A stretch of DNA of 32,000 nucleotides from Nostoc sp. PCC 7120 = FACHB-418 (GTDB taxonomy: Bacteria; Cyanobacteriota; Cyanobacteriia; Cyanobacteriales; Nostocaceae), in the NCBI RefSeq assembly GCF_000009705.1, contig NC_003272.1:4410001-4442000 (forward strand). Direction: 5' to 3'. The notes beneath the pieces were generated by a model. The model ran no database searches and was not told where the DNA came from. It saw only the letters and a list, made by a program, of their open reading frames with translations. A program made the translations under genes and the position numbers. This document shows positions 2,796 through 16,501 of the stretch, piece by piece (within the stretch, counting starts at the first letter, position 1; the number at the start of each line of letters is the position of its first letter).

Positions 2796-4187
2796 ATGGT
2801 AAATCGACGAATTGCAGAAATATTGCGGAGTGGTCAACCTGATGAGTCTCTGGTAGTTCAAGGCTGGGTAAGAACAAAGCGTGAACTTAAGGGATTTGCT
2901 TTTATTGAAGTTAATGACGGCTCATCATTAGGTAATTTGCAAGTTGTCATCAATCAGGATTTGCCAGACTACGCAGTAATTGTCAAACAACTAAACACAG
3001 GTGCATCAGTTGAGGTAAACGGCGTATTGGTGGCTTCCCAAGGAAAAGGACAGCGTATTGAATTAAAAGCCGAAGCAGTGAAAGTTTATGGTGAAGCTGA
3101 CCCCGAAACTTATCCACTGCAAAAGAAACGCCACTCTTTTGAATTTTTACGCACAATTGGACATTTGCGATCGCGTACTAATTCCTTCGGTGCAGTGTTC
3201 CGTGTCCGTAATGCTTGTTCCGCAGCCATTCACCAATTCTTCCAGGAAAGGGGCTTTTTGTGGGTACACACCCCCATCATCACCGCTAGCGACTGCGAAG
3301 GCGCAGGGGAACTATTTAGCGTCACCAGCTTGGATTTAAAGCAGATTCCCCGCACAGAAAATCAAGGAATTGATTACAGCCAAGACTTTTTTGCTAAACC
3401 CACCTACTTAACAGTCAGTGGACAACTAGAAGCCGAAGTCATGGCGATGGCTTTTAGTAACGTCTACACCTTCGGCCCCACCTTCCGTGCAGAAAACTCC
3501 AACACCTCCCGCCACTTGGCAGAATTTTGGATGGTTGAGCCAGAAATGGCATTTTGCGACTTAGAAGGCGATATGGATTTAGCAGAGGCTTTTCTCAAAC
3601 ACATTTTTAATCATGTGTTGGAAAAATGCCCAGAAGACATGGAATTTTTCAATCAACGCATTGATAATACTGTCTTAGCAACAGCCGAAAATATTATTAA
3701 TAATCAATTTGAACGTCTGACTTACACCGATGCCATCAAACTTTTAGAAAAAGCTGATGTTAAATTTGAATATCCCGTAAGTTGGGGCTTAGATTTACAA
3801 TCAGAACACGAACGTTACCTAGCAGAACAACTCTTCAAAAAGCCAGTCATCGTTACAGATTACCCCGCACAGATTAAAGCCTTTTATATGCGGTTGAGCG
3901 ACGATGAAAAAACAGTCCGCGCGATGGATGTCCTTGCACCAAAAATTGGGGAAATCATTGGTGGTTCCCAAAGAGAAGAACGTTTAGATGTGTTGGAACG
4001 CCGAGTATTAGCACAAGGAATGCAGCCTGAAGATTTGTGGTGGTATCTCGATTTACGTCGTTATGGTACTGTTCCTCACGCTGGTTTCGGCTTGGGTTTT
4101 GAACGACTCGTGCAATTTATCACAGGAATGGGCAATATTCGGGATGTAATTCCCTTCCCCCGGACACCACAAAACGCTGAGTTTTAG
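2796..4187 (+). CDS. asnS: asparagine--tRNA ligase
   Basis: 463 aa. N-terminal OB-fold region, class II motif 2 [21 protein letters not shown] and motif 3 GFGLGFERL; the length is typical of AsnRS. Confidence 0.93.
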
Positions 4188-4622
4188 TAGAAGCAGTCGT
4201 CAAATAACGCGATGTGCGACTATCTTGATTCTTAATTTTGAATTTTTAATTGGTAGAATCTTGCTCCCATCCTTTACTAGAGAAGGGGTTGGGGATTAGG
4301 GTTAAGAGAAAGTTGCACATCGCATAATATAAGTTTTATGAATGATATGTAAATATGTTTATACAACTATAGACTCATAAATAAATATACGGTATTAAGT
4401 TAATCAGGTGTTCTGTGTATTCGTTTTGCTAAATTCTGAGCGAATCAGCTTAGTCTGAATCACTTTTTTATAACAGTTTCCCATTACATAAGGTATATCC
4501 TAACCTCTTACCCCTAGTGCGCGTTCTCAAAATTGAAAAGGGGTTTGGTTCAGCGCATTACCACCTAACAAAACAATGTAAATATTGGGTTACCTTTCAT
4601 CAGACGGTCAACCCCTTTGGGG

Positions 4623-4647: not shown

Positions 4648-5144
4648 ACAATCCCCATAAATAAATAATGATGCTTTAAACAAGAATTTTTTGTGCCTTG
4701 TACTGAAGCATCGCGACACATTTGTTTTTATATTCGGTAATGAATTAAGAACCTAAGATGACTGAATATCCTTGATTCATTCATGCTCCAGTATACACCT
4801 GGCAGGATATACAAAAGAATTCAGCAATTAGCAGTCAAAACACCATAATACCAAGCTAAACCTAACAGAATTAAAACACTTTGACTCTCTAGCTGAGAGT
4901 TATAAATTCCATACTTACTCTAGTTGCAATCTGCTATAAACATTTGTCCAAACCACTAGATAAGTATCGCCATTAAGCCCATCAATAGGGTGAATCTCAT
5001 ACATAACTTATTGTATCTAAAGATGACACAAAGCGTGCTGATCGTGCCAATTTTTGACCAATTATGAGTGCATCAAAACAGCACTAAATGACAATTTAAA
5101 ACTTCCAAATAGCATAAAAATTTGATTTACAGGGAGCAAAATTC

Positions 5145-7144: not shown

Positions 7145-7825
7145 TTAAGCCATTTGATTTTCAATCGCCCACCGTGCTAGTTCGGTGCGGTTGTGAAGAT
7201 TGGTTTTGCCCAACATATTGGACACATGGCTTTCAACTGTGCGCTGACTAACATTTAATTCTTCAGCAATTTCCCGGTTAGCTAGACCCCTAGCTACAAA
7301 CTGCACTACCTTCAGTTCGGTTGGGGTTAACTGCACATCGAAGGGAACTTGGATGCGAGAACCGTTTTCCCCACCTTTGGCTTGGTGTTCCTTCCAACGG
7401 ATAGTTTGTTTCAGTGAAGATTCTACTTGTGCTACGAGTTCTTCTGGTTCAAAAGGCTTGACCATATAAACATCTGCACCTTTGTTTAGACCTTTAACTC
7501 GGTCTGCACTTTGTCCTTTTGCTGACAGGAACAAAACAGGAATCCAACTGGTGCGTTCGTTTTGCCGGACTTGTTCGACAAAGGTATATCCGTCCATTTC
7601 TGGCATCATCACGTCACAGATGATCATATCTGGAACATCATGTTCGAGAATTTCCAGAGCTTCTCGTCCGTTTTCCGCCGTGATGACTTCATATCCTCTG
7701 AATTCCAAGTAGTCCTTCACCAGCAAGATGAGGTTAGGGTCATCATCAATCAATAGAAGTCGTTTGTGATCTTTCATGCTGGGCTCTTTCATAGCAGTGG
7801 CACTTGTCGCGCTTCGATCCATCAA
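7145..7825 (-). CDS. two-component response regulator, NarL/LuxR family (REC + LuxR-type HTH); Ycf29/Rre1-like
   Basis: REC domain with LLLIDDD, phosphoacceptor context MIICDVMMPEMDG and K in VYMVKPF. The C-terminus LTPTELKVVQFVARGLANREIAEELNVSQRTVESHVSNML is a LuxR HTH. The true start may be an internal Met (MKEPSM or MKDHKR). Confidence 0.85.
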   Translation of the reverse strand: MMDRSATSATAMKEPSMKDHKRLLLIDDDPNLILLVKDYLEFRGYEVITAENGREALEILEHDVPDMIICDVMMPEMDGYTFVEQVRQNERTSWIPVLFLSAKGQSADRVKGLNKGADVYMVKPFEPEELVAQVESSLKQTIRWKEHQAKGGENGSRIQVPFDVQLTPTELKVVQFVARGLANREIAEELNVSQRTVESHVSNMLGKTNLHNRTELARWAIENQMA

Positions 7826-8661
7826 GGTCTTGAATGGTTATCCTTTATGGTGGATTGTTGAGATGTTGTCATTTTTCCCACTTAAGTTGCCCTTTCTTCC
7901 TTGGAGTCTTAAAAGTGGTTTTCACTTTCGATGACACACCAGTGCATTGGCAATATTCTAGTAAGGATACGCAGAGCAATAGTATTATAATGCGCTATTA
8001 TATATCCCTTTGAAAGTGGCGGGTGAAAATACACTGATTAAATAATAATCTTTCTAGTTCACAAGTAAGTATTGGCTTAAGATGACCCTAGCTGCAACAC
8101 AACCCGCGTTTTCATCGGCTTACTGCTCTACCATACCCTTCTGATGTTCAGCCTTTGTTTAGATGTTCACAAGCAAGTAAGGGAGTTGTTGGCAAAGGAT
8201 GGGTTAAAAATGCTGATTCTTGCGCCACCATTATGCCTATCAAGTGTTTTTGGACTATCCGCTCAATAACCTCCGGGTTTGCTTGGCGATACCAGACACT
8301 TCCGGTTAGACAACTATTATCGATCTAGAACAACAAACTAGCAAGCTATAAGCTTGAGTTTTGTTGCACTACATCACTGTATTGTTACTCATTGAGCGTC
8401 TCCCTGATTACTGTTCTATAACAATTTCCCCAGTTTGCAAATAAAGTTGTCCATATAAAAATATTCATTACTTACAGAAAAGAACCTGAAAAATACGAAT
8501 AATTGAGTATTAGTACTTACGGGCTTATCGAGAAACGTATAGATGATGACTTCTCAGTTGTAATTCGTAATACTCACCAAAAGCAAGAAGTAAGCTACTT
8601 AATTTGTAATTTTTAATGGAAAGCTTGCTAAACCATTACTCCCTACTCCCCAATCATTCTA

Positions 8662-9162: not shown

Positions 9163-10803
<1,641 letters not shown>

Positions 10804-10907: not shown

Positions 10908-11957
10908 ATGAAAGAGAAAGACGTAAAAATACTTTGGGGTCGTTCTGGAAATCGATGTGCTATTTGCAAAATTGAATTAACACCTGTTGGTTCAAAAAGC
11001 GTACTAGGCGAAATGGCTCATATTATTGCTGATTCACCTCAAGGCCCTCGCGGAGATAGTCACCTTACTTCTGAACAAAGAAATGAATACGATAATCTAA
11101 TTCTTTTATGTCCAACACATCATACCTTAATCGATAAAAATGAAGAAGAATGGACAGTAGAAAAATTAAGAATTATCAAGTCAGAACATGAAAATTGGGT
11201 TTCTAAGCAACTGAGTAACAACAATATTTATATTAATTCAATTGATAATTCAAAGTTTATTGAATCTAGAGAAAAATCATGGATTAGTTTCTCTGATAAT
11301 AAACTCTGGTTTATAACAAGTCTTACACCTCTTCATATTTATGAAGACAGTATTGATCCTTTAACACCAGAGTTATATAGCCTAATCAAGAGCTTGAGTT
11401 TACCTAAGTTTAATGGCTATTTTATGTTTTCAGATACTTTGAATCAATATAATACAGTACCTAATGAATACGGAATTATTAATCAAGAATCCCCAAACGA
11501 AGTCCAAAACAAACTTGGTCATAAAATTCAAGTTTTTAGAAACGGTCACTGTGAATTCTTAATGTGTTTAGAATATCTGAGAACTGGTAGAGATAATTCA
11601 TCTAATGATGTTTTAAAATATGACGATATGAGAAACAGTTTTATTTCCCAGATAGAAGGAATACTAAATATCTGGAGTAAAACTTTACCATTTAATGATA
11701 TGTTATTAACAGTAATGATGACTAATACTACTTATATCAGCTTATATTCGGGTCAACAAACATATAATGGTTATTTACTAGGAACTCCAGTAACTTCACC
11801 AACACTGAAATACAGTAGAGTTATTAATAAAACAGAAAAGCTACAATTTTTGCAGGATTTAGTAATCAAAAGGTTTGTGAACTACTTTGGGTTAAATATT
11901 AACAGTGTGTTTGCTGAAAATGGAAATATTAATTTGCCTAAGATACTTTATTACTAG
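10908..11957 (+). CDS. HNH endonuclease domain (aa ~15-85) fused to an unrecognised ~240-aa C-terminal domain
   Basis: CAIC(17-20)...AHII(H38)...NLILLCPTHHTLID (N63, C68, H71/H72) is a CxxC/CxxH zinc-finger HNH signature. The rest is rich in N/S/I/K/Y with no motif I recognise. The gene is strongly AT-rich. Confidence 0.75.
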   Translation: MKEKDVKILWGRSGNRCAICKIELTPVGSKSVLGEMAHIIADSPQGPRGDSHLTSEQRNEYDNLILLCPTHHTLIDKNEEEWTVEKLRIIKSEHENWVSKQLSNNNIYINSIDNSKFIESREKSWISFSDNKLWFITSLTPLHIYEDSIDPLTPELYSLIKSLSLPKFNGYFMFSDTLNQYNTVPNEYGIINQESPNEVQNKLGHKIQVFRNGHCEFLMCLEYLRTGRDNSSNDVLKYDDMRNSFISQIEGILNIWSKTLPFNDMLLTVMMTNTTYISLYSGQQTYNGYLLGTPVTSPTLKYSRVINKTEKLQFLQDLVIKRFVNYFGLNINSVFAENGNINLPKILYY

Positions 11958-12799: not shown

Positions 12800-13639
12800 A
12801 TGAGCGAAACTGACACTATAGTAAAAGGCTGGCATGGCAAACTTAATTTAGTCTACGCCGATCGCTCAAATTCCACCCAGTTAATTTACAACCACCAGCA
12901 AGCACCGCTAAAGGTACAGCGTCCGTTTTATCCAGAAGGGGAAAAAGTCTGTCATAGTGTGATCTTACATACGGCCGGGGGTGTGGTGGGAGGCGATCGC
13001 CTATCTTATAATCTCCATCTCCAACCGAACGCACAAGCTTTAATTACCACAGCCGCCGCCGGGAAGGTATATCGCAGCGACGGCTTACAAGCTAGACAAA
13101 CCATCGAGATAAAAATTGATGCAGGTGCTTGTTTAGAATGGCTACCGCAGGAAACAATTTTATTTAATGGGGCAATTTATCGCCAAGATTTACGGGTAGA
13201 ATTAGCCACTGGAGCCAATTTCTTAGGCTGGGAAATTACCCGATTTGGTCGTAGTGCTAGAGGAGAGAAATTCTACCAAGGAGAATGGCGATCGCATACA
13301 GAAATTTGGCAACAAGGTGTTCCTTTGTGGATTGATCGTCAATGGCTACCGGGAAATGACGCCGTTTTCCACAGTCCTCATGGTTTGGCTGGACAACCAA
13401 TAGTAGGTAGTCTAGTTTGGTTGGGTAGTCCCATTTCCACAGAAATCATCGAAAAAGCGCGCAATTTAGGGAATACTCAAGGTGAAGCAGGCGTTACTTC
13501 CTTAGAAAATGGATTTTTATGTAGATATCGTGGTGCTTCCACGTCTGAAGTGAGAAACTGGTTTACGTCTGTTTGGCAATTGTTGCGAGGTGAGTTTTTC
13601 AGTCGTGGTAAATGTATACCCAGAGTGTGGCAAACTTAA
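12800..13639 (+). CDS. ureD: urease accessory protein UreD
   Basis: 279 aa, immediately upstream of ureA. Contains HTAGGVVGGD and WLPQETILF, typical UreD/UreH blocks. Confidence 0.88.
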   Translation: MSETDTIVKGWHGKLNLVYADRSNSTQLIYNHQQAPLKVQRPFYPEGEKVCHSVILHTAGGVVGGDRLSYNLHLQPNAQALITTAAAGKVYRSDGLQARQTIEIKIDAGACLEWLPQETILFNGAIYRQDLRVELATGANFLGWEITRFGRSARGEKFYQGEWRSHTEIWQQGVPLWIDRQWLPGNDAVFHSPHGLAGQPIVGSLVWLGSPISTEIIEKARNLGNTQGEAGVTSLENGFLCRYRGASTSEVRNWFTSVWQLLRGEFFSRGKCIPRVWQT

Positions 13640-13666: not shown

Positions 13667-13969
13667 ATGCAGCTTACGCCACAAGAGAAAGATAAATTAT
13701 TGATTTTTACAGCCGCTTTAGTAGCAGAGAGGCGCAAAAATAGGGGGTTGAAACTTAACTATCCAGAAGCCGTGGCGTATATTTCTGCTGCTATTTTAGA
13801 AGGTGCGAGGGATGGCAATACAGTATCAGAGTTGATGAGTTATGGCACAACTCTTTTAACACGAGATGATGTTATGGAAGGGATAGCAGAAATGGTACAT
13901 GAAGTGCAGGTAGAAGCAACTTTTCCTGATGGGACAAAGTTAGTAACTGTGCATAATCCTATTCGTTAA
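13667..13969 (+). CDS. ureA: urease subunit gamma
   Basis: 100 aa. [23 protein letters not shown]...VTVHNPI is canonical. Confidence 0.96.
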
Positions 13970-13989: not shown

Positions 13990-14316
13990 ATGATTCCAGG
14001 GGAAATAATTACACCAAGCGGGGAAATTGAATTAAATGCTGGTCGTGATACTGTAAAATTGCTGGTTGCTAATACAGGAGATAGACCAATTCAAGTTGGT
14101 TCCCATTTTCATTTTTATGAAGTTAATTATGCGTTAATTTTTGATAGGGAATTGGCGTTAGGAATGCGTCTGGATATTCCTGCGGGGACGGCGGTTAGGT
14201 TTGAACCTGGGGATGAGAAGGAAGTGAGTTTAGTTCCTTTGGTTGGGAGTCGTCGGGTTTATGGGTTTAATGGGAGGGTGAATGGGGAAATTAACGCAGA
14301 GGGGCGCGGAGGTTAG
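13990..14316 (+). CDS. ureB: urease subunit beta
   Basis: 108 aa. MIPGEI...[14 protein letters not shown]...GDEKEV.LV. The last residues (AEGRGG) and the stop codon are encoded inside the left inverted repeat of the downstream cassette. Confidence 0.94.
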
Positions 14317-14320
14317 CGCG
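14295..14320. repeat. left 26-bp inverted repeat flanking the GxxExxY gene
   Basis: cgcagaggggcgcggaggttagcgcg matches the reverse complement of 14741-14766 at 25 of 26 positions. Confidence 0.85.
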
Positions 14321-14333
14321 GAGGGGTGCGGAG

Positions 14334-14726
14334 TTAGAGGTTGTTGGCTACGCGTTTGATGCCTTCTTTGAGGTGGAGGACTTTAAAGTTGAGGAGGAGT
14401 GCGAGTTTAGAATTAGTGAGTTTTAAATTAGTGAGTTTTAAATAAGTTAGAAGTTGTACTGCGTGAATGGGTTTAAGAGATTCCACAGATTTGATTTCAA
14501 TAATTACTTTATTTTCTACTATTAAATCCAATCGATAAACACAATCTAATTCCACTTCTTTATACACCAAAGGTACGGGAATTTGTCTACCCACTCTAAG
14601 TCCCTCCCGCCTCAACTCATAAAACAAACACTCCTCATAAGCCGACTCCGACAACCCTGGCCCCAACACCGTATGCACCCTCATCCCACACCCAATTATC
14701 ATCCCACTCAAATCATTCTCCTCCAT
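14334..14726 (-). CDS. GxxExxY family protein (PD-(D/E)xK nuclease fold), antisense inside the urease cluster
   Basis: GLSESAYE is the GxxExxY signature. D in YRLDLIV plus EIK in VIIEIKSV gives a D...ExK nuclease motif. Length (130 aa) is typical of the family. Confidence 0.8.
14411..14440. repeat. perfect 15-bp tandem duplication (aattagtgagtttta x2) inside the GxxExxY CDS
   Basis: Read directly. It is in-frame and yields [10 protein letters not shown] in the protein. The flanks 14403-14410 and 14441-14445 are degenerate partial copies. Confidence 0.9.
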
Positions 14727-14740
14727 TCTCCTCTATCCTT

Positions 14741-14766
14741 CGCGCTAACCTCCGCGCCCCTCCGCG
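14741..14766. repeat. right 26-bp inverted repeat flanking the GxxExxY gene
   Basis: cgcgctaacctccgcgcccctccgcg. It ends 28 nt before the ureC ATG. Confidence 0.85.
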
Positions 14767-14794
14767 TTTCAATCTTAACCTCAAGGAATACACC

Positions 14795-16501
14795 ATGCCC
14801 TACAGAATGTCCCGCCAAGCCTACGCTGAAACCTACGGCCCCACAGTAGGCGATCGCATCCGACTTGCTGATACAGAATTATTTATACAAGTAGAGCAAG
14901 ACTTCACAACCTACGGCGATGAGGTGAAATTCGGCGGTGGTAAAGTCATTAGAGATGGGATGGGACAATCTCCCATTGCTAACGCCGATGGTGCAGTAGA
15001 TTTAGTCATTACGAATGCTTTAATCCTCGATTGGTGGGGGATTGTCAAAGCAGATATCGGCATTAAAGATGGCAAAATATTTAAAATTGGGAAAGCCGGG
15101 AATCCCTATATTCAAGATCATGTAGATATTATTATCGGCCCTGGAACCGAAGCCTTAGCGGGGGAAGGAATGATTCTCACGGCTGGCGGTATTGATACCC
15201 ATATTCATTTTATTTGTCCCCAACAAATTGAAGTAGCGATCGCCTCCGGTATCACTACTATGATTGGCGGCGGTACAGGCCCAGCCACAGGAACCAACGC
15301 CACCACCTGCACCCCCGGCCCTTGGAATATGTACCGGATGCTGCAAGCGGCTGATGCGTTTCCTATGAACTTAGGATTTTTAGGTAAAGGTAACGCCAGT
15401 CAACCTCAAGGCTTAGTAGAACAAATTTTTGCGGGTGCAATTGGTTTAAAGCTGCACGAAGATTGGGGAACCACACCCGCCACCATTGATACTTGCTTGA
15501 CTGTAGCCGACGAATACGACGTACAAGTGGCCATTCACACCGACACCCTCAACGAAGCCGGATTTGTCGAAGATACCATCGCCGCTTTTAAAAATCGCGC
15601 CATCCATACTTACCACACCGAAGGCGCAGGCGGTGGACACGCACCAGATATTATCAAAGTCTGTGGACAAGCCAACGTTCTTCCATCTTCCACCAACCCT
15701 ACCCGCCCTTACACCGTCAACACCTTAGACGAACACCTCGATATGTTGATGGTATGTCATCACCTTGATCCAGCGATCGCTGAAGATGTGGCTTTTGCTG
15801 AATCCCGCATCCGCCGCGAAACCATCGCCGCCGAAGATATTCTCCATGATTTAGGCGCGTTTAGTATGATTGCTTCCGATTCCCAAGCTATGGGCAGAGT
15901 AGGGGAAGTAATAATTCGCACTTGGCAGACATCCCACAAAATGAAGGTGCAACGGGGAAGCCTTACCGGAGATGCTGAAGCAGACAATTTAAGAGCTAAA
16001 AGATATGTTGCTAAATACACAATCAATCCGGCAATTACGCATGGAATCGCTCAGTATGTAGGTTCTGTAGAAGCAGGTAAACTTGCAGATTTATGTTTGT
16101 GGCGACCAGCGTTTTTTGGTGTCAAACCAGAGATAGTCATTAAAGGCGGGATGATTGCTTGGTCACAAATGGGTGATGCTAACGCCAGCATTCCCACACC
16201 GCAACCTGTGCATATGCGTCCCATGTTTGGTAGTTTTGCAGGTGCGAGAAATGCCACATCTTTAACCTTTGTTTCCCAAGCCGCTTTAGAAAGAGAAATT
16301 CCTCAGCAATTGGGTTTACGAAAATCAGCAGTCGCAGTTTCTGGAACTCGCCAATTAACTAAACAGGATATGAAACTGAATGATGCCTTACCTCATATAG
16401 AAGTAGATTCAGAATCCTATGAAGTTAGAGCCGATGGGGAATTGTTGACTTGTGAACCTGCAACAGTGTTACCAATGGCGCAGAGGTATTTTTTATTTTA
16501 A
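14795..16501 (+). CDS. ureC: urease subunit alpha
   Basis: 568 aa. [16 protein letters not shown] (carbamylated Lys), HTDTLNE, MVCHHLD. Confidence 0.97.

Follow-up and report, generated by a model that had tools for sequence, protein, structure and literature searches.

We have analysed a 32,000-nucleotide (nt) stretch of the genome of the cyanobacterium Nostoc sp. PCC 7120 (contig NC_003272.1, positions 4,410,001 to 4,442,000; the whole stretch is hereafter called the window, and coordinates refer to it unless another locus is named). Between the urease genes ureB and ureC, and antisense to them, lies a gene for a small protein of the GxxExxY family, framed by two inverted repeat arrays that we call arms. 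The interpretation that we favour, albeit tentatively, is that this cassette may be one copy, fixed and passed on by vertical descent, of a widespread bipartite system, in which a PD-(D/E)xK nuclease gene is accompanied by its own cognate dispersed repeat, similarly to the repetitive extragenic palindromes (REPs) and their associated tyrosine transposases (RAYTs).

Arms accompany GxxExxY genes in several phyla

The arm is 45 nt long and combines an outer end, TTTAA(A/C), with an array of at most four CGCNNAG heptamers. The start-to-start spacing of the heptamers is 10, 12 and 10 nt in cyanobacteria and 9, 12 and 9 nt in Flavobacterium, and they form two doublets approximately two helical turns apart. 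What is conserved in the arms has the character of a motif: CGC and AG never change and keep a constant phase, and the intervening letters are free to differ, even when orthologous ure loci are compared. A lone consensus arm contains no palindrome (predicted folding energy of −3.8 kcal/mol versus −5.7 ± 2.3 for shuffled sequences). Phasing of the heptamers by one and two helical turns, together with their symmetric arrangement, would fit recognition by a DNA-binding protein.

The sample consisted of 80 genomic loci encoding GxxExxY relatives and four orthologous genomes, and a 45-nt arm profile was built. Inward-facing arms were sought at the 82 loci with both flanks present and were found on both sides of the gene at 55 of these, on one side at 21 and on neither at 6, that is, at least one arm at 76 of the 82 loci, which come from several phyla. 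Arm density was 4.99 per kb within 200 nt of the gene and 0.075 per kb elsewhere in the loci (∼66-fold enrichment), and inverted repeats in the gene flanks reached z-scores of up to 33 across loci. The first-pass annotation, made on the window alone, had allowed that the repeat might prove to be a dispersed sequence unrelated to GxxExxY genes; it is indeed dispersed, and mostly located away from the gene (see below), but its enrichment beside the gene speaks for a relationship.

Arms were found in Nostocales, Flavobacterium, other Bacteroidota, Gemmatimonadota and Alphaproteobacteria and, among metagenome-assembled genomes (MAGs), in those labelled Ignavibacteria, Pyrinomonadaceae (Acidobacteria) and Chlorobiota. 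The neighbouring genes differ by lineage. These are ure genes in Nostocales, fabD/fabG in Sphingomonas, and radA and a gene for an FAD-dependent protein in Bacteroides, whereas in an Ignavibacteria MAG the unit is located between an arsC-like gene and an arsenite-transporter-like open reading frame (ORF; both labels were read off translations). Since the neighbours are unrelated between lineages, the entering unit would have been the gene together with its arms. Loci from Flavobacterium are mutually syntenic. GxxExxY relatives in Gemmatirosa, Sphingomonas and Bernardetia, which are 37–54% identical, are accompanied by variant arrays of CGCAGAGG, CGCGAAGG or CACAGAG; no arm array was found at the Prevotella member of the family.

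Two loci display tandem amplification. In L019 (positions 1892-2434) five gene-less arm-pair units of 109 nt are located directly upstream of the GxxExxY gene, and in L027 (2880-3140) the downstream arm occurs three times, each time together with the 3'-terminal ∼40 nt of the gene. In some genomes the arms are split between heptamers by GC-rich, hairpin-like insertions of 30–55 nt which are absent from orthologues (a 31-nt insert in the upstream arm of L001; L012 compared to L122; L147 at ∼7225-7262; L178 at ∼3261-3297). It appears that very small insertion elements target the arms themselves.

The cassette in the urease gene cluster

The features of the cassette and its surroundings in the window are as follows.

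12800-13639, ureD (ORF list)
13667-13969, ureA (ORF list)
13990-14316, + strand, ureB, urease beta subunit; the final seven codons (NAEGRGG) and the TAG stop lie within the left arm
14291-14333, + strand, left arm, 3' of the GxxExxY stop codon (nhmmer against the 45-nt arm profile, E = 2e-5)
14334-14726, − strand, GxxExxY/PDDEXK_3 gene, 130 amino acids (aa), antisense to the ure genes; start codon (CAT) at 14724-14726
14403-14447, − strand, 15-nt unit present three times within the GxxExxY ORF, an in-frame duplication of five aa (LKLTN)
14728-14772, − strand, right arm, 5' of the GxxExxY start codon (nhmmer E = 1.4e-5 and alignment of orthologous junctions)
14773-14794, + strand, spacer from the right arm to the ureC start, holding the AAGGA ribosome-binding region of ureC
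14795-16501, + strand, ureC, urease alpha subunit; neighbour of the GxxExxY gene on its promoter side in every Nostocales locus examined

The heptamers of the two arms are located at the following positions.

Left arm: CGCAGAG 14295-14301, CGCGGAG 14305-14311, CGCGGAG 14317-14323 and TGCGGAG 14327-14333; outer end (T)TTAAC
Right arm, heptamers read on the + strand as CTNNGCG: 14760-14766, 14750-14756 and 14738-14744, intact
Right arm, inner unit: 14728-14734, decayed to CTCCTCT
Right arm, outer end: GCGTTT, 14764-14769

All the facts that had been described from the window by eye hold. The 130-aa ORF antisense between ureB and ureC is present in the ORF list and is recognised by both PF13366 and TIGR04256; the ORF coordinates give the spacers reported for the rest of the cluster (27 nt between ureD and ureA, 20 nt between ureA and ureB); and ureB does end inside the left repeat, with its last seven codons and the TAG at 14314-14316. 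The 26-bp inverted repeats agreeing at 25 of 26 positions are likewise present, with the one refinement that the arms are built of heptamers in an array and are not simple 26-mers. The inverted repeat as a whole extends over 41 nt (14293-14333 versus 14728-14768; 85% complementary), with the 25/26 match as its core. A 25-mer from this core occurs in the window solely at 14296-14320 (+) and 14741-14765 (−, one mismatch), when none would be expected by chance, and chance or artefact as the source of the repeat was therefore rejected. No further arms were found in the window, even at an nhmmer threshold of E≤10.

Spacing between gene and arms is tight. Where cyanobacterial loci have full-length arms, the start codon follows the inner unit by 1–2 nt and the stop codon precedes the other arm by 0–6 nt; in the orthologues the inner unit of the right arm, CGCGGAG, ends ∼1–10 nt before the ATG. 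The GGAG of this unit could serve as the Shine-Dalgarno sequence of the GxxExxY gene. A scan of positions 14100-15100 revealed neither promoters nor terminators. In the spacer preceding ureC, CAAT..TAAC and AGGA are partly kept among orthologues.

The GxxExxY gene of the window is presumably all3669, and a full-text literature search for this presumed locus tag retrieved no paper. The ureC gene of PCC 7120 is alr3670 (PMC7290344). Upstream of the ure cluster, the window also carries an ORF of 349 aa with an HNH_2 endonuclease domain (10908-11957, +), which starts ∼100 nt past a cpn60/GroEL-like gene (9169-10803).

The GxxExxY protein

The protein is assigned to its family by full-length matches to PF13366 (PDDEXK_3; E = 6e-40, 136.7 bits, cutoff 22) and to TIGR04256 (GxxExxY; E = 6e-40, 136.2 bits, cutoff 35, residues 6–126). 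In the window protein the name-giving motif reads G24-L-S-E27-S-A-Y30 and is followed by D67, E77-I-K79 and Q91xxxY95; the D...ExK motif noticed earlier (D67, E77-x-K79) is therefore intact. Alignment of 71 diverse relatives revealed that E27, D67 and K79 are invariant and that conservation reaches 90% or more at G24, Y30, E77, Q91 and Y95. The series E...D...ExK...QxxxY is the signature of RecB/Cas4-type nucleases. An AlphaFold2 model was obtained with a predicted local distance difference test (pLDDT) score of 89.7 (an earlier model from a shallow alignment had scored 55), and its weak neighbours in the PDB include Cas4 SSO0001 (the best Foldseek match, 4ic1, E = 0.013), AddAB, lambda-exonuclease-like proteins and CinB, as well as I-Bth0305I. 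By sequence, no solved structure was matched, and searches of PADLOC and PHROGs for membership in a defence system gave weak Cas4 matches only. Judging from the motif series and the modelled fold, the GxxExxY protein is predicted to be a minimal Cas4/RecB-type PD-(D/E)xK nuclease core.

The family is very large, 16,864 clusters at 50% identity being reached at E≤1e-3, and a survey of the PD-(D/E)xK superfamily from 2012 gives its function as 'Unknown' (PMC3424549). It is essentially chromosomal: the protein was matched by 6 of 72,556 plasmid records (E≤1e-8), all of them large replicons, and none of 50,697 phage records gave a match. Tandem double GxxExxY domains are present in several proteins of 263–295 aa (P0241-P0247, P0253 and P0255), which suggests that members of the family may act as dimers or higher oligomers.

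The copy in PCC 7120 has peculiarities of its own. The 15-nt duplication is absent from the seven aligned orthologues (125 aa), and four substitutions (L26S, C to S, G to A and N to K) affect near-invariant positions; neither the substitutions nor the LKLTN duplication are found in L001, which is the closest orthologue. The PCC 7120 copy may be under weakening constraint, although its catalytic residues are intact.

History at the ureB–ureC junction

The closest homologues of the protein (75–91% identical) are encoded in Anabaena CCY 9910, Nostoc HK-01, AP018174.1, Nostoc UHCC 0870 and in MAGs of Nostocales, Trichormus and Rivularia. All of them adjoin ureC in antisense orientation and are accompanied by arms; the first-pass annotation had considered that relatives might carry the gene at this junction without repeats, and it is with repeats that they carry it. 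The position beside ureC is identical in L001-L011, ureB being located on the other side of the cassette except in two MAGs, L010 (labelled Rivularia) and L011, and the Nostocales loci examined are syntenic, each with a single cassette. Comparison of the gene with its orthologues yielded ratios of nonsynonymous to synonymous substitution (dN/dS) of 0.14–0.25 at dS of 0.14–0.71, indicative of purifying selection. The shared ureC-proximal position, the arms and the purifying selection together indicate that the insertion at the ure locus is old, fixed and vertically inherited.

The UreB proteins of relatives comprise 101–103 aa and terminate at a TAA within the outer TTTAAA of the arm. This outer stop has been lost in PCC 7120 and in L001, where reading runs on to the TAG in the arm. 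The two arms have fared differently: the left (ureB-side) arm has kept all four units in 8 of 8 aligned orthologous ure loci, whereas four of these loci (PCC 7120, L002, L007 and L008) lack one or two complete units of the upstream arm, 5' of the GxxExxY gene.

Other inserts are found in the same region of related loci. L087, with a UreB 91% identical, carries genes for an AAA_15 ATPase and a DUF4276 protein between ureA and ureB, and its ureB–ureC junction is filled not by the cassette but by a 340-aa NucS_C-like ORF without arms (inserts at 1161-2983 and 3326-4348). Junctions of the ure operon seem to attract nuclease or defence-like inserts. L089 (3365-6306; L090 is alike) has genes for a cupin, a methyltransferase-HIT fusion and a HicB-like protein as well as a 230-aa ORF between ureB and the cassette, and additional arms at 3860-3905 (−) and 4855-4895 (+). 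Rfam family RF02514, a Helicobacter small RNA (sRNA) antisense to the 5' part of ureB, was matched with 94–101 bits in L003 (3487-3773, +) and L010 (1912-2201, +), antisense to the 5' part of ureC, on the GxxExxY strand and upstream of the GxxExxY gene; these matches probably reflect conservation of urease coding sequences and not a real sRNA.

Arms as a dispersed repeat

An unbiased scan of metagenomic contigs for the cyanobacterial arm pattern gave matches in at least 80 loci, and the counts in this section that concern metagenomic arms are among the matches listed: 103 arms in 80 loci, distributed as follows.

Adjoining a GxxExxY gene (8 loci): 15 arms
Gene-less inverted pairs: 12 arms
Contig ends: 12 arms
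Solo, beside unrelated genes: 64 arms

Solo arms are intergenic (1 of 41 was within a long ORF) and display no orientation bias towards the neighbouring genes. Orthologous solo arms are kept between related MAGs, with CGC and AG fixed and changes at the N positions. Gene-less palindromes, formed by two inverted arms around centres of 5–30 nt, also occur, as do tandem gene-less units. Many solo arms are centred in a separate, conserved element of ∼130 nt, which resembles a miniature inverted-repeat transposable element (MITE) and has imperfect terminal inverted repeats (CTTAGTACAGCTTTGCGTAAAATCGTGGCGAATT ... AATTCGCTACGAATTAATGAAATGTTGTACTTAG); examples are found on metagenomic Nostocales contigs (L104 at ∼940-1090, L105 at ∼8085-8235, L158, L160, L168 and L170).

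GxxExxY is the commonest cargo of arm pairs, with 8 loci versus ∼2 with other cargo among the 80 arm-seeded loci. In L156 (190-921) the arms bracket ORFs of 75 and 102 aa that resemble an antitoxin and a RelE-type toxin, and in L115 (3712-4708) a pentapeptide-repeat ORF, both labels having been assigned by eye; in L010 (2879-3744) they bracket a 223-aa ORF without a Pfam match.

Nostoc plasmids carry arms, and none of the six plasmid records that matched the protein (E≤1e-8) is a Nostoc plasmid. The presence of arms on plasmids without the matching protein fits an action in trans. The empty site of a plasmid-borne solo arm was sought as well, and no close relative was found in PLSDB. Seven viral contigs matched the arm pattern, none of them with the gene. 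Literature searches turned up no account of the arms or of what GxxExxY proteins do; overlap with a named small dispersed repeat of Nostoc is possible.

Does pairing between the arms matter?

The first-pass annotation had put forward an RNase III-type stem that would uncouple ureDAB from ureC. In its full form this explanation holds that the arms pair in the ure or the antisense mRNA as a 30–40-bp stem, that RNase III cuts it and thereby uncouples or tunes ureDAB and ureC, and that pairing is the selected function of the arms. The stem is physically possible, the predicted energy of the arm–arm duplex being −76.3 kcal/mol for the ure strand and −74.5 kcal/mol for the opposite one, far below those of shuffled sequences (∼−37 ± 4.5), and the antisense orientation is kept in all Nostocales ure loci examined. 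Pairing was evaluated in ten loci with full-length arms against column shuffles (n = 500), a control known to be exceeded by related sequences without structure. Of the cells, 86.2% were paired versus 82.8% after shuffling, and double-sided changes affected 27 cells versus 16.8; neither value was reached in any shuffle (0/500 each). However, the number of pairs with double-sided changes was 12 versus 10.2 expected, and 86 of 500 shuffles reached 12. Column pair 25/64 covaries with zero mismatch, and there is a small real excess of shared variable letters, which would be explained as well by occasional arm-to-arm homogenisation as by structural selection.

The remaining observations count against a selected stem. 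Twenty of the 42 column pairs never vary, and several variable columns are unpaired in 50–60% of loci (range 30–60%). The likeness of the two arms stems mainly from their common motif. Arm identity within loci (0.835 in Nostocales, 0.809 in other phyla) is barely above that between loci (0.796 and 0.78, respectively), the commonest mismatches are transversions, and there is no G-U-compatible excess on either strand. Furthermore, complete units of the upstream arm are gone in half of the eight ure loci, the cassette is in sense orientation within other operons elsewhere, 64 of the 103 arms listed are solo and unable to form a stem, and no Rfam family matches the arms (the region having been searched at E≤10 and 20 loci at gathering thresholds). 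As an account of why the arms are there, the RNA element is thus improbable. We conclude that, from the pattern of conservation, an RNase III-type stem may form but is probably not what keeps the arms conserved.

Weighing the explanations

Under the explanation that we favour, the heptamers would be putative binding sites of the GxxExxY nuclease. The gene with two inward-facing arms would constitute a 'master' copy, and gene-less arms, whether solo or in inverted pairs, would be derivatives spread or maintained in trans by the nuclease. In Nostocales the unit would have inserted at the stop codon of ureB in the distant past and been retained ever since, and pairing of the arms in ure or antisense mRNA would be a by-product of their inverted arrangement, not a selected function. 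A bolder form of the proposal, conceivable but doubtful, is that GxxExxY and the CGCNNAG arms are an unrecognised, multi-phylum class of intragenomic replicators, a PD-(D/E)xK-driven counterpart of RAYTs and of the REP doublets (REPINs) that they serve, in which the ∼125-aa nuclease binds the heptamers and copies or moves arms, and occasionally itself, between intergenic sites, while master copies persist for hundreds of millions of years in housekeeping operons, ureB–ureC being an example.

Several observations weigh against a nuclease with a cognate repeat. No empty ureB–ureC site was found among relatives, of which two were looked up through their UreB: the junction is occupied by the NucS-like ORF in L087 and by extra genes plus the cassette in L089. 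Among orthologous metagenomic loci there was no presence/absence polymorphism of arms, which are kept, and no separable target-site duplication was found, TTTAA(A/C) at both outer ends being inseparable from the repeat. The earlier suggestion of a mobile or once-mobile unit finds support as 'once-mobile', by gene and arms in unrelated operons across phyla and by the gene-less arm pairs, but not as mobility at the ure locus, where the unit is old and fixed. Most of the arms listed are not adjacent to a GxxExxY gene and might belong to another factor, and a few arm pairs bracket other small cargo, such as the toxin-antitoxin-like pair and the pentapeptide-repeat ORF. The occurrence of CAC- versus CGC-type heptamers follows no clean pattern with respect to protein clade. 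The arm, consisting of four phased heptamers without an internal palindrome, differs from a REP, which is a hairpin with a GTAG/CGTC tag. Finally, binding of the arms by the nuclease, or their cleavage, is a conjecture.

Some of these points would be accommodated if the arms were an independent dispersed repeat, selfish or serving the host via another protein, with GxxExxY merely as favoured cargo; the gene might, for instance, home into the middle of palindromic arm pairs that were already present, or the arms might be recombination hot-spots that capture small genes. Besides the abundance of solo and gene-less arms and the occasional other cargo, this explanation is consistent with the clean gene-less palindromes, into whose 5–30-nt centres the ORF would fit exactly, with the accumulation of further genes beside the cassette in L010 and L089, and with the many solo arms that ride in the MITE-like element. 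We nevertheless regard it as unlikely, as arms travel with the gene across phyla and GxxExxY is by far their commonest cargo; it also overlaps the favoured explanation, since homing would still need recognition of the arms by the nuclease. The heptamer arrays could instead be operators at which the GxxExxY protein or a host regulator loops DNA and represses a potentially toxic nuclease gene, the dispersed arms acting as regulatory or decoy sites. The phasing of the sites by approximately one and two helical turns, their symmetry about the gene, the overlap of the inner unit with the ribosome-binding region and start codon, and the result of the promoter scan, in which no sigma-70-like promoter was found between the arm and the GxxExxY ATG, are in line with it. 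Yet the centres of gene-less pairs are too short for looping, solo arms have no bias of orientation or position towards their neighbours, and the joint travel of arms and gene into unrelated operons would be left unexplained, which makes operators quite improbable.

Integron cassettes were considered because of the arm ends, GTTTAAC/GTTAAAC, which resemble attC core sites. The consensus of the latter is RYYYAAC/GTTRRRY, and the outer ends TTTAAC...GTTAAA appear to fit it. The anatomy does not agree: the ORF lies inside the palindrome rather than between successive attC sites, the arms are phased heptamer arrays and not bulged attC-like hairpins, the cassettes are single and located within housekeeping operons, and no integrase or transposase was recognised by Pfam among the window ORFs of at least 110 aa. 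An integron origin is hence exceedingly improbable, and it was rejected on the position of the ORF inside the inverted pair, the absence of intI among these window ORFs and the single cassette.

Relation to known systems

The nuclease with its cognate repeat is most reminiscent of REP/RAYT systems, where a nuclease-type gene is flanked by inverted short repeats that are also dispersed in intergenic regions as solo copies and inverted doublets (PMC5581495; PMC3116915; bioRxiv 10.1101/2022.05.22.493013). RAYT genes, present as single copies, are passed on by vertical descent and stay associated with their REPINs for a long time (PMC5581495; bioRxiv 10.1101/2022.05.22.493013). The enzymes, however, are different, a RAYT being an HUH/Y1 transposase of the IS200/IS605-like type and the GxxExxY protein a PD-(D/E)xK nuclease by profile and predicted fold. 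The distributions differ as well, REP/RAYT systems occurring mainly in Proteobacteria and the arms in Cyanobacteria, Bacteroidota and other phyla. With an enzyme that is not HUH and a repeat that is not a hairpin, the GxxExxY cassette is best viewed, as far as motifs and modelling indicate, as an analogue of REP/RAYT and not a member.

Inverted ends composed of several short phased motifs are also characteristic of transposons with terminal inverted repeats and of MITEs (the ends of Tn7 and Mu; the subterminal motifs of Ac/Ds and En/Spm), which likewise have gene-less derivatives sharing the ends and insert between genes. However, the cassette encodes no DDE, serine or tyrosine transposase, its sole ORF being the PD-(D/E)xK protein. 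Neither a separable target-site duplication nor copy-number bursts were seen, positions are stable across whole orders, and GxxExxY is nearly absent from plasmids and absent from phage records. PD-(D/E)xK homing endonucleases (I-Ssp6803I and I-Bth0305I) share with the cassette a small nuclease gene between or inside conserved host genes, but homing endonuclease genes lack flanking repeat arrays and tend to degenerate after fixation, whereas the GxxExxY gene is under purifying selection across Nostocales.

As in RNase III-processed elements, namely the intervening sequences of 23S rRNA and the Correia elements of Neisseria, the inverted ends could pair into a long stem within a host transcript. 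Unlike the intervening sequences, the cassette is located outside rRNA, covariation is weak and conservation is of the motif type. ORFs within intervening sequences belong to a different family, encoding four-helix-bundle, Avd-like proteins. Cas4/RecB nucleases have the catalytic core E...D...ExK...QxxxY in common with the GxxExxY protein, but the similarity is confined to this core, the GxxExxY protein being only ∼125 aa long and, in the window sequence, devoid of a C-terminal cysteine cluster. No CRISPR or RecBCD-type genes were found in the window or at the loci with gene content examined.

Implications

A very large family with 'Unknown' function is now linked to a defined, conserved array of DNA motifs, which provides a hypothesis both for the target of the protein and for the role of the repeat. 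If the proposed relationship is true, GxxExxY would provide a second case, with an unrelated mechanism, of a domesticated nuclease that coexists with a dispersed repeat of its own. Systems of the REP/RAYT kind are known mainly from Proteobacteria, and nuclease–repeat partnerships of this kind would then extend to Cyanobacteria, Bacteroidota and other phyla. For Nostocales, the relationship would account for a class of intergenic repeats in their genomes and for the tolerance of an antisense gene inside the urease operon of heterocyst-forming cyanobacteria.

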